Shown here: one piece after another, positions 28,895-35,357 of the stretch
How positions within the stretch are numbered: position 1 is the stretch's first letter
How the letters are laid out: the number at the start of each line of letters is the position of its first letter
NCBI GenBank assembly: GCA_020725385.1
Contig: DYFC01000017.1
Span: forward strand, 32,001 to 96,000
Reading direction: 5' to 3'
Source of the DNA: Nitrospira japonica
GTDB lineage: Bacteria; Nitrospirota; Thermodesulfovibrionia; Thermodesulfovibrionales; SM23-35
DNA length: 64,000 nt
Program-made: the position numbers and the translations under genes
The notes under the pieces: generated by a model
What the model was told of the DNA's origin: nothing
The model's database searches: none
What the model saw: only the letters and a program-made list of their open reading frames with translations

Positions 28895-29887
28895 TTAACT
28901 ATATACTTTCTTCCAGTATTTTCTTAAAAATTTAAGTTTACGTTTTACCCAATCTAAGTTTTGTATGTACCATTTAACAGTTTTTTCAATTCCTACATCG
29001 AAAGTTACTTTTATATCCCATCCTGTTTCATTACGGATTTTTGATGAATTTAAAGAATACCTGAAATCGTGTCCAGGTCTGTCTTTAACAAATTCAATAA
29101 GACTATAGTCTTTTTCGAGCAAGTCTAATATTTTCTTAACAACTTCAATATTTTTCTTTTCCTGACCGCTCCCAACATTATATATTTCTCCTGCAATTCC
29201 TTTATTTATAATTTTAAAAATTGCTTCGGCACAATCAGAAACATAAAGCCATTCCCTTATATTTTCACCTTTACCATAAACTGGAATCTTTTCGTTATTT
29301 AATGCTTTTAAAATCACAACAGGTATAAGTTTTTCAGGATATTGCCATGGACCATAATTATTTGATGGCCTGACTGTTATAACAGGAAGTCCATATGTTC
29401 TGAAATATGCTCTCCCAAGCATATCTGCTGATGCTTTGCTTACTGAATATGGGGAATTTGGATTAATTGCGCTTGTCTCGGTGAAATGCCCATTATAACC
29501 GAGTTCTCCATAAACTTCATCGGTGGAAATATTAATAAATTTTTTAATGCATTTTTCTTTTGATACATCCAGAAGAACTTGAGTGCCTTTAATATTTGTA
29601 TCAATAAAAGGTGAAGCATTAAGAATACTTCTATCAACATGACTCTCTGCAGCCCAATGAACAACAATATCAGGTTTGAATTTATCGAAAATAATTCTTA
29701 AAGTTTTTATATCAGTAATGCTTCTTCTGTGAAAATCAATTTTATCAATGATATTTTTAAGACGTTCCAAATCACCGGCGTAACTGAGATTATCAACTAC
29801 AGCTATTGAGTAACCCTTTTTTACTCCTGATCTTACAAATTCACTACCTATAAAACCTGCTCCACCTGTAACAAGAATTCTTTTCAT
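28895..29887 (-). CDS. rfbB: dTDP-glucose 4,6-dehydratase
   Basis: GGAGFIG, AAESHVDRS, STDEVYG, YSVSK and DRPGHD motifs. Confidence 0.95.
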   Translation of the reverse strand: MKRILVTGGAGFIGSEFVRSGVKKGYSIAVVDNLSYAGDLERLKNIIDKIDFHRRSITDIKTLRIIFDKFKPDIVVHWAAESHVDRSILNASPFIDTNIKGTQVLLDVSKEKCIKKFINISTDEVYGELGYNGHFTETSAINPNSPYSVSKASADMLGRAYFRTYGLPVITVRPSNNYGPWQYPEKLIPVVILKALNNEKIPVYGKGENIREWLYVSDCAEAIFKIINKGIAGEIYNVGSGQEKKNIEVVKKILDLLEKDYSLIEFVKDRPGHDFRYSLNSSKIRNETGWDIKVTFDVGIEKTVKWYIQNLDWVKRKLKFLRKYWKKVYS

Positions 29888-29893
29888 GGTTTA

Positions 29894-30751
29894 CTAAATA
29901 TCTTCCTTTTTATATAGAGTTTCAATATATCTATCAATACCTGTTTTCCAATCAGGTATATCAACATTTAAAGCTCCGGAAAGCTTCTTATTAGACATTG
30001 CTGAAAAAAAAGGCCTTTTTGCAGGAGATGGAAAGTCATTTGAATTTGCCGGTAGAACAAGATTTTCTAAGCCTGCACGTTCTATGAAGTATCTTGCCAC
30101 CTCATATCTCGAAGCATATCCGCTGTTTGTTAAGTGATAAACTCCACGAAGTCTTTTATTTATCGAAAAAAGCGTTAGGCTGACAATATCGTTGGTGTAA
30201 GTTGGAATGGAAATCTGGTCACATACTATCTTAAGAACTTTATTATTTTTAGCCCAATCCAATAACTTTGATAAGAAATTTTGTCTTCCTTGACCAAAAA
30301 CCCAGCTAACTCTGAATAAAAGAAAATTATTCATGGTATCCTGAAGATATTTTTCACCTAATAATTTACTTTGCCCATATTTATTCAGGGGATTAGGTTC
30401 ATCATCTTCATTATAAAAGTCTCTCTTCAACCCATCAAAAATATAGTCTGTACTGTAATGAACAAGCAAAATATTGTTCTTTTTACATGCAATGGCAAGA
30501 TTCATAACACCTTCTGCATTTACTCGGAGAGCTATTTCATAATCATCTTCAGCCTTATCAACAAAATTATACGCTGCACAATTTAATACAATATCAGGTT
30601 TATTTTCCTCTATTTTTTTTAGGACAGCATCCATATTTGAGATGTCAAGACTTGCCTTATCAAAAGAACAATAATCATGTCCAAAATCTTTTAAATATTC
30701 AGGAAATTCTTTTGCAAGCTGTCCGTTAGCCCCTGTGATTAAAAATTTCAT
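29894..30751 (-). CDS. rfbD: dTDP-4-dehydrorhamnose reductase
   Basis: GANGQL, AAYNFVDKAE, STDYIFDG and YGQSK motifs. Confidence 0.93.
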   Translation of the reverse strand: MKFLITGANGQLAKEFPEYLKDFGHDYCSFDKASLDISNMDAVLKKIEENKPDIVLNCAAYNFVDKAEDDYEIALRVNAEGVMNLAIACKKNNILLVHYSTDYIFDGLKRDFYNEDDEPNPLNKYGQSKLLGEKYLQDTMNNFLLFRVSWVFGQGRQNFLSKLLDWAKNNKVLKIVCDQISIPTYTNDIVSLTLFSINKRLRGVYHLTNSGYASRYEVARYFIERAGLENLVLPANSNDFPSPAKRPFFSAMSNKKLSGALNVDIPDWKTGIDRYIETLYKKEDI

Positions 30752-30781
30752 AAAATCTTATAAAAGTAATGAAGATTAATG

Positions 30782-31336
30782 TTAATAAACAAAATTATTA
30801 TCTGCTTCCTTCAAATAAGGATGCTTTTTATCTTTTTCTGAAAGTATAGGTTCTAATATAGGCCAGTTAATATTTATATCAGGATCATTCCATATTATAC
30901 CTCTATCACAAACAGGGGAATATTCTCTTGTGCATTTATAAAGAACTTCAGCAGTTTCTGAGATTACAACAAAACCATGTGCAAAACCTGATGGGACATA
31001 GAGCATTAACCTGTTTTCTCCTGATAACTCAACTCCAATCCATTTTGAATAATAAGGTGAATTTTTACGTATATCCACTACAACATCAAATATTTTACCT
31101 CTTAAGCACTGAACAAGCTTTGCCTGAGCATCGGGATTTTTTTGATAATGAAGTCCGCGCAAAACCCCTTTATATGAAAATGAGAAATTATCCTGTAAAA
31201 AGTATTCTTTGATTCCAGCTTTTAGAAAGTCTGAATATTTGTAAGTCTCAGCAAAATACCCTCTTGAATCAGAAAAAATTTCAGGTGTTATTAAAATTAC
31301 TCCCGGGATTTCTAATTGCTTAAAAGTAAATGGCAT
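30782..31336 (-). CDS. rfbC: dTDP-4-dehydrorhamnose 3,5-epimerase
   Basis: DSRGYF, LRGLHYQ and GFAHGF motifs. Confidence 0.95.
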   Translation of the reverse strand: MPFTFKQLEIPGVILITPEIFSDSRGYFAETYKYSDFLKAGIKEYFLQDNFSFSYKGVLRGLHYQKNPDAQAKLVQCLRGKIFDVVVDIRKNSPYYSKWIGVELSGENRLMLYVPSGFAHGFVVISETAEVLYKCTREYSPVCDRGIIWNDPDININWPILEPILSEKDKKHPYLKEADNNFVY

Positions 31337-31340
31337 ATAT

Positions 31341-32213
31341 TTATTTAATCAATCTCATTAAATATTTTCCGTATTCATTCTTATTAAGATTTTGGGCAAG
31401 TTTAATTAACTGTTCCTTATTTATGTAACCTAATTTAAAAGCTATTTCTTCAATACATGCAATCTTAAGCCCCTGTCTTCTCTCGATTGTTGCTATAAAT
31501 TCACCTGCTTCAAGAAGGCTTTCATGTGTCCCTGTGTCAAGCCATGCAAAACCTCTACCCATTAATTCTACCCTTAATTTTTTATTTTTCAGGTATTCTT
31601 TGTTTACATCTGTTATTTCAAGTTCTCCTCTATGTGAGGGTTTTATTCTTTCTGCGATACAAATTACTTGATTATCATAGAAATAGAGTCCTGTAACCGC
31701 ATATTTTGATTTTGGAGTTTTTGGTTTTTCTTCGATTGAAAGAACATTACCGTTTTCATCAAACTCTACAACCCCGTATCTTTCAGGATCATTTACATAA
31801 TATCCAAATACTGTGGCTCCTCCAAGATTCTCAATATCAGAATATGCTTTTTTCAGTAAATTTGTGAAACCATGACCGTAAAATATATTATCTCCAAGAA
31901 CAAGGCAAACATTATCATCTTTTATGAATTCCTTAGCGATTATGAATGCCTGGGCAATTCCACCGGGATGTGGCTGTTCTTTGTATGAAAAATTCAGACC
32001 AAGATTTTCTCCTGTCCCAAAAATCTGGATAAAGCGGGGCAAATCAGCAGGTGTTGAAATGATAATAATATCCCTTATCCCTGCGAGCATTAAAACAGAT
32101 AAGGGATAATAAATCATCGGTTTATCGTATATAGGTAACAACTGTTTACATACCCCTAAAGTAATGGGGTATAATCTTGTTCCGCTTCCGCCTGCTAAAA
32201 TTATGCCTTTCAT
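31341..32213 (-). CDS. rfbA: Glucose-1-phosphate thymidylyltransferase
   Basis: [25 protein letters not shown] and WLDTGT motifs. Confidence 0.96.
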
Positions 32214-32299
32214 TTTGTATTTTATTTTACATTACATTAATAAATATTAAAATACCTTGTTATTCACATTATTTCAAATTTTGTGATAAGATTAGTCTG

Positions 32300-33160
32300 A
32301 TGAAAATAATTGATATTCATACTCATGGGATTGGCGGGTATGACACAAGAACTACAGATTTTAAACACCTCTTAAACATAGCACATCTTCATGGCTTAAA
32401 AGGTGTAGAAGAAATTCTCCTTACAATTTATCCAGCAACAATCAAATTAATGCGTGAGAACATGGAAAATATAAGAAAAGCTATGGAAATACAAAATCAA
32501 TTAATTGATAATGGTTCTAAAATTATTGGAATTCATCTTGAAGGTCCTTTTCTTAATCCTGCCTATTGTGGCGCTTTAAATGCTATGACTTTTCTTGAAC
32601 CTTCTGAAAAATTATTTTATGAATTGGTGGAAGGTTATGAAAATATTATTAAGATTATAACAATTGCACCGGAACTTGATGGTGCTCCTGAACTTATTAA
32701 AAAAATTTCCGACATTGGAATCATGGTAAACATGGGACATTCAGAGGCAACATACAATGAAGCTGAAAATGGATATAATCATGGGGCAAAAGGAGTTACA
32801 CATATATTCAATGCCATGAAAGGGTTACACCATAGGGAACCGGGGCTTGCAGGTTTTGGTTTGTTAAATAAGGATGTTTTTATAGAAATGATTGCTGACC
32901 CTTTTCATCTTAGTGAAAAAACAATCGAATTAATTTTTAAAGTTAAAGACCCTGAAAAAATAATTATTGTTTCCGATTCTGTAAAAGAGACAGAAACTTA
33001 TCCGGAAAACAAAGGGATATATAGCAATTATGGCAAATTGCTCGGTGGTAGTATGACTATAACTGAGTCTGCAAAAAGGCTAATTGATTCAGGATATGAA
33101 AAAGAAATAATAATGAATTGCATCACATCAAACCCAAAAAAATATTTAGAAAGGGAGTAA
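32300..33160 (+). CDS. nagA: N-acetylglucosamine-6-phosphate deacetylase (compact form)
   Basis: DIHTHG, HLEGPF, APE, GHS and THIFNAM motifs. Probable start ATG 32300, because the longer ORF overlaps rfbA. Confidence 0.82.
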   Translation: MKIIDIHTHGIGGYDTRTTDFKHLLNIAHLHGLKGVEEILLTIYPATIKLMRENMENIRKAMEIQNQLIDNGSKIIGIHLEGPFLNPAYCGALNAMTFLEPSEKLFYELVEGYENIIKIITIAPELDGAPELIKKISDIGIMVNMGHSEATYNEAENGYNHGAKGVTHIFNAMKGLHHREPGLAGFGLLNKDVFIEMIADPFHLSEKTIELIFKVKDPEKIIIVSDSVKETETYPENKGIYSNYGKLLGGSMTITESAKRLIDSGYEKEIIMNCITSNPKKYLERE

Positions 33161-33164
33161 ATTA

Positions 33165-33380
33165 ATGTCAGAGAAAGTTATTATTTATGGAAAGCCGGGT
33201 TGACCATATACAAAAAAAGCACTTGATGCTTATGGAGATAATGTTGAATATTATGATGTGAAAGCAGATGATAAAAATATGGAGAATATGCTAAAGATTT
33301 CAGGCGGAATAAGAAAAGTGCCTGTAATAGTAGAAAAAGGTAAAGTTACGGTAGGATTTGGTGGTGCATGAATTGTTTAA
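33165..33380 (+). CDS. Glutaredoxin-like selenoprotein with two Sec codons (UXX-star type)
   Basis: Hand translation MSEKVIIYGKPG-U-PYTKKALDAYGDNVEYYDVKADDKNMENMLKISGGIRKVPVIVEKGKVTVGFGGA-U-IV*; TGA at 33201 and 33369; AAGGGAG RBS; hairpins follow both UGAs. Confidence 0.88.
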
Positions 33381-33405
33381 TAATTTAGCGGCAGCTAAAT
33401 AAAAC
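33369..33405 (+). promoter_or_regulatory. Bacterial SECIS-like hairpin for the second UGA
   Basis: ATTTAGC-GGCA-GCTAAAT stem-loop 11 nt after the UGA, with G at the start of the apical loop. Confidence 0.65.
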
Positions 33406-33497
33406 AAAAATTTGCAGATTATTTATGCTTATCATACATAATGGCAATTCTTGGAGCTTCATCCTGAATAAATCCAGTAAATATGATTAAATAAAAT

Positions 33498-33980
33498 ATG
33501 TGGTATGCAATTTATTTGAAATCAGGAAAAGAAGATTCGGTTTCCTCACATCTCAAGAATGCTGGGATTGAAGTAATTAATGCAAAGCTAAAAATAAAAA
33601 AGTTTAAAAATAATAAATTAACAGAGGTTATCGAGCCTTTATTTCCCTGTTATATATTTGCCAATTTTGATAAGGATAAATATTCTCATATGATTACGTT
33701 TACCAGAGGAGTTCGTTATATAGTTGGAAAAAGTAATCCGTTAGTTGTAAGTGAAGATATAATTCAAGCTATTAAAGAAAATATGAATGAAAATAATTTT
33801 GTAATTATAAAACCCCGTAAATTTTCAAAAGGGGAAAAAGTTATTATTAAAGAAGGTCCTTTGAAAAATTTTTATGGAATATTTGAGAAAGAGCTTAAAG
33901 GACCAGAAAGAGTAATGATACTTCTTGAAACTCTTAATTATAAAGTGGAGATTGATGGAAGTTATCTTGAAATAGCTTAA
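33498..33980 (+). CDS. NusG paralog (RfaH/UpxY/LoaP-like antiterminator)
   Basis: WYAIY..SGKE, EPLFPCYIF, TRGV and KOW motif GEKVIIKEGPLKNFYG; not in a secE-rplK context. Confidence 0.85.
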   Translation: MWYAIYLKSGKEDSVSSHLKNAGIEVINAKLKIKKFKNNKLTEVIEPLFPCYIFANFDKDKYSHMITFTRGVRYIVGKSNPLVVSEDIIQAIKENMNENNFVIIKPRKFSKGEKVIIKEGPLKNFYGIFEKELKGPERVMILLETLNYKVEIDGSYLEIA

Positions 33981-34076
33981 AAGAAATAATTAAGACAATG
34001 TCCAATACTACTAAAGATATTTTGACTGTAAATATCTTTATCTGTTATCTTATTCAAAATTGATAAATATTTAGAA

Positions 34077-35357
34077 ATGGTAAAAAAATCAGAAAATAAA
34101 GAATATATCAGACCCCTTGAAAGAAAAGTCGAAGCTTTAAGAATTCTTACAGAGGTATCTTCAATAATATCATCTACACTTGATATCCGAGAATTGATGT
34201 CTCTTGTTATGGAAAAAGCAAAAGAAATTTTAAGTGCAGATGCATGTTCGATTCTTATTTATAACAAAAAGACCAATAAACTCGAGTTTGAAGTTGCTAT
34301 ATGCGGTGAAGAATCAACTTCAGAAATGTTAAAGGAAAAAATAACTCTTGATATGGGGCAGGGCATAGCTGGTTGGGTTGCACAGAACCAGCAAATTCTT
34401 GTAATTAAAGATGTAAAAAAAGATAAAAGGTTTTTTCATGATGTAGATAAAATGACTGGTTTTGAAACAAAATCTCTTATCGCTGCTCCTTTAATTGGAA
34501 GGCGTGGTTTAATCGGAGTTGCCGAAATAATCAATCCGCAAAAAGAAGATTATGACCTTGAAATATTAAGTATCCTTACAAAGCATTTTGCAACTGCAAT
34601 AGAGAATGCTATATACCATTCTGAATCTCTTGAAAGAGAAAGAATTAAACAGGAACTCGAAATTGCAGCAACATTGCAAAAAAGTTTTTTGCCTGAAAAC
34701 CCTATTTTTGAAAAAGGAAAAATTAAAGTTTTCGCAATAAACATACCAGCAAGACATGTAGGTGGAGACCTTTATGATTTTGTAGAACCGGTCAGGGGAA
34801 AAGTAGGAGTTTTTATTGGAGATGTTTCAGGTAAAGGTGTATCTGCTGCTTTATATATGGCTAAAATTATAAGTGATTTCAGGTATATTGCACGTGGAAT
34901 TAATTCTCCTTCAGAAGTTATGGGTAAATTGAATAAAGTACTATCTGGTGCGCCTAGAGGGATGTTTCTTACTGCTATATATCTTATTATTGATGTGGGA
35001 AATGGAGAATCGGTTATTTCAGTTGCAGGGCATCCTCCCTGCATACTCATAAATAAAGATGGAATAAAGGTTCTGGAAATGCAGACGGGGCCGCCGCTTG
35101 GAATTATTGAAACTGATTTTAAGGAGAATAAGATTAGTCTAAGGAGCGGTGACAGATTAATTATGCTTACAGATGGAGTATTTGAAGCAAAAAATATTTC
35201 AGGAGAAAGAATAGGTTTTAATGCTATATTGGAGTTTATTGGAGAAAACCAAAATATTGAAAATTTGTCTGAAAAAATAATAGGCCATATTAATGAATAT
35301 TCAAAAAATACAGAAATGGCTGATGATATCACAATTGTAGAAATTAAAATCCGGTGA
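34077..35357 (+). CDS. GAF-domain PP2C/SpoIIE phosphatase (RsbU-like)
   Basis: GAF domain (GIAGWVA, FETKSLIAAPL); VGGDLYD, GDVSGKG, TDGV and DDIT motifs. Confidence 0.9.
   Translation: MVKKSENKEYIRPLERKVEALRILTEVSSIISSTLDIRELMSLVMEKAKEILSADACSILIYNKKTNKLEFEVAICGEESTSEMLKEKITLDMGQGIAGWVAQNQQILVIKDVKKDKRFFHDVDKMTGFETKSLIAAPLIGRRGLIGVAEIINPQKEDYDLEILSILTKHFATAIENAIYHSESLERERIKQELEIAATLQKSFLPENPIFEKGKIKVFAINIPARHVGGDLYDFVEPVRGKVGVFIGDVSGKGVSAALYMAKIISDFRYIARGINSPSEVMGKLNKVLSGAPRGMFLTAIYLIIDVGNGESVISVAGHPPCILINKDGIKVLEMQTGPPLGIIETDFKENKISLRSGDRLIMLTDGVFEAKNISGERIGFNAILEFIGENQNIENLSEKIIGHINEYSKNTEMADDITIVEIKIR

Follow-up and report, generated by a model that had tools for sequence, protein, structure and literature searches.

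The stretch of DNA analysed here (the window, 64,000 nucleotides) carries a gene of UXX-star selenoprotein family 1 at 33165..33380 on the plus strand, which comprises 71 codons followed by TAA and holds two in-frame TGA triplets, the proposed selenocysteine (Sec) codons 13 and 69. Direct reading of this strand places the ATG at 33165 and the TAA at 33378-33380. A Shine-Dalgarno-like GGGAG, likewise read directly (33153..33157, plus strand), lies 7 nt 5' of the ATG and overlaps the end of the upstream ORF, and GGAGG-type sites occur at an equal distance from the start in the relatives. The first TGA (33201..33203, plus strand) is codon 13, U13 of the motif G-U-P-Y-T, and takes the place of the nucleophilic Cys of glutaredoxins. 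The second TGA (33369..33371, plus strand) is codon 69, U69 of the motif G-G-A-U-I-V, and constitutes the third-last codon; ATT, GTT, and TAA follow it in a U-x-x-stop layout. The 71-residue product ends in G-F-G-G-A-U-I-V, contains a K-V-P motif of the cis-Pro type at residues 51-53, and is devoid of Cys upon translation. Since no ORF of at least 40 aa is listed at this place under table 11, an ordinary ORF caller would miss the gene. An earlier interpretation made from the letters alone (the sequence-only reading) had described a frame opened by a ribosome-binding site and an ATG after the upstream ORF, with a UGA at the glutaredoxin redox Cys position, an intact cis-Pro VP motif, a second UGA at the third-last residue, no Cys, and no call by standard ORF finders; each of these features was recovered. 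Selection acts on the 71-codon frame. In contigs of three other studies both TGAs are unchanged, and the five differences inside the ORF comprise four synonymous ones and one E3G replacement.

Upstream of the gene, a NagA-like amidohydrolase ORF occupies 32177..33160 on the plus strand (327 aa from a TTG), and its TAA stop at 33158-33160 lies 4 nt before the ATG. This neighbor had been named nagA with a 4-nt gap; the gap is exact, but the gene qualifies as NagA-like only, scoring 180.1 bits on TIGR00221 against a cut-off of 225.65. A NagA-like gene on the same strand upstream is the commonest neighbor, yet it is present at only 14 of 91 loci, and no conserved operon partner was found among them. 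From the 4-nt gap alone, we infer that the two genes may be co-transcribed. A divergent rmlB-rmlD-rmlC-rmlA cluster for dTDP-rhamnose (28895-32213, minus strand) is located on one side of the gene, and a NusG paralogue resembling RfaH/UpxY (33498-33980, plus strand; 95 bits on the RfaH model, under the cut-off) on the other. Since the gene lies between these two features, the region is suggested to be one of surface polysaccharides.

Family membership, fold, and relatives

The translated product, with Cys standing in for Sec, was compared with the NCBIfam equivalog model NF041114 ('UXX-star selenoprotein family 1'). The match extends over the whole profile (1-70/70) at 2e-31, with 108 bits against a cut-off of 72, and the wider model NF041212 yields 82 bits. 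The value of 2e-31, together with the occurrence of the same frame with two TGAs in relatives, places the gene beyond chance. As judged from its sequence, the gene is another member of the known, curated UXX-star family, in agreement with the original assignment. It has in common with family 1 the U-P-[YFH]-T motif near the N terminus, the G-G-x-U-x-x-stop C terminus, a length of about 70 residues, and two Sec positions, and no defining difference separates the two. The deviations of the window gene are confined to U-I-V where the usual form is U-G-V, a Leu for Arg in the stretch encoding the first hairpin loop (CUUGA), and GGCA as the second hairpin loop. The UXX-star families 2 and 3 and the HUGP/GUXX-star fusion (NF041211, NF047338, and NF045501) also possess a glutaredoxin-like domain with Sec as the third-last residue, but the window protein scores 47, 45, and 54 bits on these models, whose cut-offs are 100, 97, and 325.

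The glutaredoxin fold is supported by the Pfam model PF00462 Glutaredoxin (38.4 bits) and by an AF2 model computed from 63 family sequences, which reaches a mean pLDDT of 86. The model adopts a beta-alpha-beta-alpha-beta-beta arrangement without a C-terminal helix and ends after strand 4 plus a short tail. The top Foldseek matches in the PDB are glutaredoxins (3ic4 with a TM of 0.71, 3qmx, and 4tr1), and by sequence the closest solved structures are likewise glutaredoxins, with 2klx at 1.7e-5. The [UC]-P-x-T motif is present within this fold as G-U-P-Y-T. Classical and Sec-containing glutaredoxins (PF00462; Clostridium oremlandii Grx, 4tr0/4tr1; A. fulgidus, 3ic4) share with the window protein the thioredoxin-type beta-alpha-beta-alpha-beta-beta core, a nucleophile located where helix 1 starts, a cis-Pro loop, and a GG motif. 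In contrast, their active site is C/U-P-Y-C rather than U-P-Y-T, and the window protein lacks the C-terminal helix and carries an extra Sec on a three-residue tail. It is not a glutaredoxin proper by the NCBIfam glutaredoxin models, the scores being far under the cut-offs (27.8 bits vs 90 for TIGR02181, Grx3; 26.2 bits vs 85.75 for TIGR02194, NrdH). Two short strands in the AF2 model, one immediately preceding the cis-Pro (residues 51-52) and one at residues 69-70, weakly hint that the tail may lie on the cis-Pro loop near residue 13, at the substrate site of glutaredoxins.

The distribution of the family was analysed at two scales. In a set of 41 genomes, consisting of the window's own and 40 relatives, 20 contain a match over the family cut-off, and a TGA is located inside every match. 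Eighteen of these sequences were read through, and all of them have U at both sites and, two codons past the second U, a stop (TAA, TAG, or TGA). A public scan using one genome per prokaryote species provided 299 stretches encoding a relative, of which the best 80 were analysed. These 80 loci belong to Nitrospirota/Thermodesulfovibrionales, Pelotomaculum, Syntrophales and other Deltaproteobacteria, Acidobacteriota, Methylomirabilota, and Spirochaetes. Within this set of 80, Sec occupies the first site at 57 loci and Cys at 23, a Cys share that may be inflated by the use of Cys at the first site in one of the two search patterns; Trp or variable residues, which would have pointed to a pseudogene, never occur there. 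At the C-terminal site, all 80 loci have TGA and none has Cys. Consequently, the 80 loci divide into 57 Sec..Sec and 23 Cys..Sec forms. The Sec/Cys exchange at the first site fits its placement at the glutaredoxin redox Cys, and the prediction that homologues would show Cys or TGA at both sites was borne out, by both codes at the first site and by TGA at the second. Between the C-terminal TGA and the stop, 80 of these 80 loci have exactly two codons, which are conserved, mostly as G-V. As far as these sequences indicate, the invariant residue of the family is the C-terminal Sec, and the 'active-site' Sec is replaceable by Cys.

Two groups of loci depart from the common form. The copy in G021 (L045; G021:C10:26234-26395) keeps the first TGA, loses the frame after residue 56, and falls under the family cut-off; judging from its sequence, it is probably a pseudogene, in contrast to the intact copies. 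At seven Cys-form loci of Acidobacteriota (L153:2182-3210 and six similar ones), an open frame of ~340 aa extends from the upstream region into the glutaredoxin-like domain, with the NF041114 match limited to the last 67 residues. These long frames could be a fusion or a mere open frame in GC-rich DNA.

A 2026 review (PMC13188914) lists the family as 'Distant Grx-like protein 1', citing Zhang and Gladyshev 2008; for family 2 and the fusions it credits Haft and Tolstoy 2025. Grx-like families are present in Zhang and Gladyshev 2008 (PMC2398784), the name 'Distant Grx-like protein 1' being absent from the accessible portion of its text. A full-text literature search for 'UXX-star' returned the review PMC13188914 only. 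The family is already curated in NCBIfam and published, and the gene itself adds little new, representing one more member of it. It is nonetheless a 71-codon gene, apparently doubly recoded and skipped by ordinary ORF callers, that was spotted from sequence alone.

Hairpins following the two UGA codons

A SECIS-like element follows each UGA. The one after the second UGA (element 2; 33373..33407, plus strand) extends across the stop codon and the 3' UTR. It consists of an inner helix (33383-33389/33394-33400), a GGCA loop, and an outer helix (33373-33378/33402-33407). Since just two codons follow U69, the second SECIS must extend past the stop codon. The hairpin ATTTAGC-GGCA-GCTAAAT at 33383-33400, whose loop starts 18 nt past the UGA, folds better than shuffled sequences (z -3.05, with 3 of 200 shuffles as good). 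In an alignment of 81 distinct sequences covering the TGA to 45 nt past it, 80.5% of the cells in the 7-bp family helix are paired, compared with 57.9% in shuffles, and two-sided changes are observed at all seven pairs. The covariation amounts to 0.618 against 0.251 in shuffles, none of 500 shuffles being as high, and to 0.10-0.19 in slid controls with the partner moved by 1-3 columns. A hairpin of at least 5 bp is present in 79 of the 81 sequences, with loops that start 13-25 nt past the UGA (mode 18). The first two loop bases include a G in 78 of the 81, and GU is found in 65.

The SECIS-like element after the first UGA (element 1; 33204..33235, plus strand) is situated within the coding region and is composed of an inner helix (33217-33221/33227-33231), a CUUGA loop, and an outer helix, CCAUA/UAUGG. 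Its hairpin, AAGCA-CTTGA-TGCTT at 33217-33231, is weak when taken alone (z -0.88, with 32 of 200 shuffles as good). In a gap-free alignment of 58 distinct Sec-form sequences, 91.4% of the cells in the 5-bp family helix are paired, and the covariation is 0.383 against 0.177 in shuffles, with none of 500 shuffles as high. One pair joins two codon third positions and reads CG in 42 sequences, UA in 13, AU in 2, and another combination in 1. With the Cys forms as a control, all five pairs are formed in 34 of 49 Sec forms vs 5 of 23 Cys forms, and the second loop base is G in 48 of the 49 Sec forms. Both hairpins noted in the sequence-only reading, the clean one after the second UGA and the weaker one after the first, therefore sit at covarying hairpins of the family.

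The loops of the window gene are unusual. The usual loops of the family are xGGUC for the first hairpin and (A)GUU for the second, and the CUUGA and GGCA of the window gene depart from both. In this genome, in the sister species G005, and in G009, Leu replaces Arg in the loop-encoding stretch, giving the off-consensus loops CUUGA or CUUGC; G009 combines such a CUUG-type loop with selD. A SECIS hairpin after each UGA is hence indicated by covarying helices in the relatives, and the window gene has both helices with loops off consensus. An Rfam scan of 32500-34200 with E up to 10 detected no SECIS family, just chance snoRNA-like matches, and ARAGORN found no tRNA in the window. Element 2 would provide a clean example of a bacterial SECIS working from the 3' UTR. 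The comparative data thereby sharpen two points about the family, namely the apparently invariant C-terminal Sec with a replaceable first Sec and the placement of the second SECIS in the 3' UTR.

UGA decoding machinery and the selD site

The assembly (71 contigs, 2.46 Mb) has a completeness of 96.6%. A TGA stop ends 286 of the 1323 frames of at least 250 codons, and the RF2 gene prfB is present (505 bits); on these grounds, TGA as a genome-wide sense codon was rejected. The sequence-only reading had proposed looking for selA, selB, selC, and selD. The search identified selA (628 bits), two copies of selB (384 and 358 bits), and a tRNA-Sec with the anticodon UCA (72 bits), but selD was not found in the assembly.

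The genome was also scanned for read-through frames in which coding signal precedes as well as follows a TGA and a hairpin lies downstream of the TGA, and the resulting 14 candidates were compared with NCBIfam. Seven are further selenoprotein genes, each with a single uninterrupted family match that extends across the TGA. Their products are formate dehydrogenase-N alpha (1515 bits), a second Fdh alpha (880 bits), arsenite methyltransferase (ArsM), TmcB, an RnfB-like Fe-S protein (NF005503), PrxU (423 bits), and a DsbC/G-like protein. The genes are located on the contigs of this genome (G000) at C27:11712-14783(-), C27:32849-35563(-), C26:19593-20384(-), C23:3663-4979(+), C31:134476-135621(-), C45:33359-34078(+), and C62:14927-15700(+). 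Among the rejected candidates, ProS+GreA, CheC+GGDEF, and flippase+SixA are neighboring gene pairs in one frame, two others have no family match, and the matches of the protoporphyrinogen oxidase and cytochrome candidates start past the TGA.

A 96-nt tRNA was also observed; it has the shape of tRNA-Sec (8-bp acceptor stem and long variable arm), its anticodon is GCA (Cys), and its discriminator is U. This tRNA-Sec-like tRNA-Cys sits just upstream of the second selB (C15:21101-23099; L061:9093-11100, minus strand), and G005 has the same pair. The accessible part of Mukai et al. 2016 (PMC5389517) describes selC* tRNA-Cys genes in Thermodesulfovibrio/Nitrospirae and an adjoining selB* in two deltaproteobacterial groups only. 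G001, which belongs to the same genus, has two selD copies scoring 385 and 343 bits. On the tRNA-Sec model, it yields, besides the best match, three more that reach or exceed the gathering score (two tRNA-Sec-like genes of ~58 bits and one match of 47 bits); these genes are spread over several contigs. Because of these extra selD and tRNA-Sec-like matches, the selenium gene set appears to vary in copy number within the genus.

The search for selD covered the whole assembly with TIGR00476 and NF002098 and found no selD. The top TIGR00476 matches, 69 and 55 bits against a cut-off of 125, are ThiL and HypE, respectively. A tblastn search with the G002 SelD (X at the TGA) against the whole assembly and a 739-nt spacer returned nothing beyond the same two proteins. 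selD is over the cut-off in 38 of the 41 genomes, nearly all with one internal TGA, and the exceptions are this genome, G005, and G024. G005, the sister species, is 98% complete and keeps selA, tRNA-Sec, both UXX-star TGAs, and the PrxU TGA; G024 keeps the FdhA TGA. In G002 and G003 of the same genus, selD adjoins an 85-aa gene, YedF, and a cysteine-desulfurase-like gene. The same YedF/desulfurase-like cluster is present in this genome on a 53-kb contig, with an AT-rich spacer after mtaB at the position where selD would be expected. This spacer measures 739 nt here (C15:18315-19053; L061:6316-7054) and 765 nt in G005, and no selD remnant was found in the 739-nt spacer. In G001 and G003, selD lies on contigs of 2.0-2.6 kb.

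The most likely explanation is that selD lies elsewhere and was missed in assembly or binning. It is improbable that this genome and G005 have truly lost selD, yet decode the UGAs here and in at least seven other selenoprotein genes. In such a case selA, selB, and tRNA-Sec would have been kept, and the YedF/cysteine-desulfurase-like cluster would have been retained, joined to the second selB and the tRNA-Sec-like tRNA-Cys. The selenium donor for SelA would then arise via an enzyme or route not yet recognised. A Sec-using lineage with selD neither at the ancestral site nor elsewhere in two assemblies may matter more than the gene itself, if a closed genome agrees.

Proposed decoding and function, and the competing explanations

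Considering the results described above, 33165-33380 is very probably a working UXX-star family 1 gene in which both UGAs are recoded to Sec, each via its own hairpin. SelB with Sec-tRNA(Sec) would decode both UGAs, each directed by a hairpin ~18-20 nt downstream, the first being written into codons 18-22. Sec is predicted to be inserted at both positions. The resulting protein would have a glutaredoxin fold truncated behind the Gly-Gly motif.

We tentatively propose that Sec13 and Sec69 may form a selenenyl-selenide redox couple. According to this proposal, the C-terminal Sec would swing on the flexible tail into the groove by the cis-Pro loop and bond to U13; the Cys forms would form a selenenyl-sulfide instead. 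In some monothiol glutaredoxins, a Cys just after the GG motif is the resolving residue, and thioredoxin reductase has a redox-active C-terminal Cys-Sec tail. The Gly-Cys-Sec-Gly tail of the animal thioredoxin reductase resembles the window protein in placing a redox Sec on a flexible C-terminal tail with an insertion signal beyond the stop. However, its fold is unrelated, its insertion depends on a eukaryotic SECIS and SBP2, and it uses a Cys-Sec pair, whereas the two residues of the window protein are distant. By analogy with these systems, the diselenide between the two ends of the protein, which the sequence-only reading had envisaged, is plausible.

The same gene and recoding may instead serve to bind a metal or metalloid through the two selenols, with no redox cycling. 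This function, which is raised in the review PMC13188914, is rather unlikely. The Thr, not Cys, at the second active-site position and the Sec-containing arsenite methyltransferase in the same genome are in line with it, whereas the protein has the fold, cis-Pro loop, and GG motif of thiol-disulfide oxidoreductases. Moreover, no metal-handling neighbor recurs, the commonest one being the NagA-like amidohydrolase at 14 of 91 loci. The redox couple is favored over metal binding because of the parallels with monothiol glutaredoxins and thioredoxin reductase.

The remaining explanations question the recoding itself. If the gene were a silent relic, or its UGAs were read as something other than Sec owing to the loss of selD, the off-consensus SECIS loops and the absence of selD from this assembly (96.6%) and from G005 (98%), with the locus contiguous without selD in both, would be accounted for. 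We consider this quite improbable, since both genomes retain intact selA, selB, and tRNA-Sec, the frames of at least eight selenoprotein genes containing a TGA are still open in this genome, and G005 keeps both UXX-star TGAs along with the PrxU TGA. The copies of this genome and G005 differ by conservative changes only, and the population differences are mostly synonymous. The CUUG-type loop is shared by G009, which has selD, and the tRNA-Sec-like tRNA-Cys cannot read UGA with its GCA anticodon. Furthermore, the short selD contigs in G001 and G003 suggest that selD may be hard to assemble in the genus. The proposal that the second UGA is a plain stop, yielding a 68-residue protein with one Sec, and that the hairpin is a terminator or unrelated, is very improbable. 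UGA often serves as a stop in this genome (286 of 1323 long frames), many relatives end with TGA as a true stop two codons later, and a hairpin at the end of a gene is in the usual place for a terminator. Against this, a T-run follows the hairpin in only 2 of the 81 sequences and no terminator-like site was found in 32000-34200 of the window, on which basis a terminator was rejected; the hairpin covaries and displays SECIS spacing and G-first loops. The stop exactly two codons past the TGA, after conserved codons, in 80 of the best 80 of 299 loci and the extension of NF041114 over the last three residues (profile 1-70/70) also oppose a plain stop. Two stops within 71 codons and the missing table 11 call are what a decayed glutaredoxin pseudogene or a chance frame would show, an explanation that is scarcely credible given the score over the cut-off of the equivalog model NF041114, the recurrence of the same two TGA positions in several phyla, the Sec/Cys exchange at the first site, and the covarying hairpins after both TGAs. 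The G021 copy (L045), which has really decayed, differs in that its frame is gone after residue 56.
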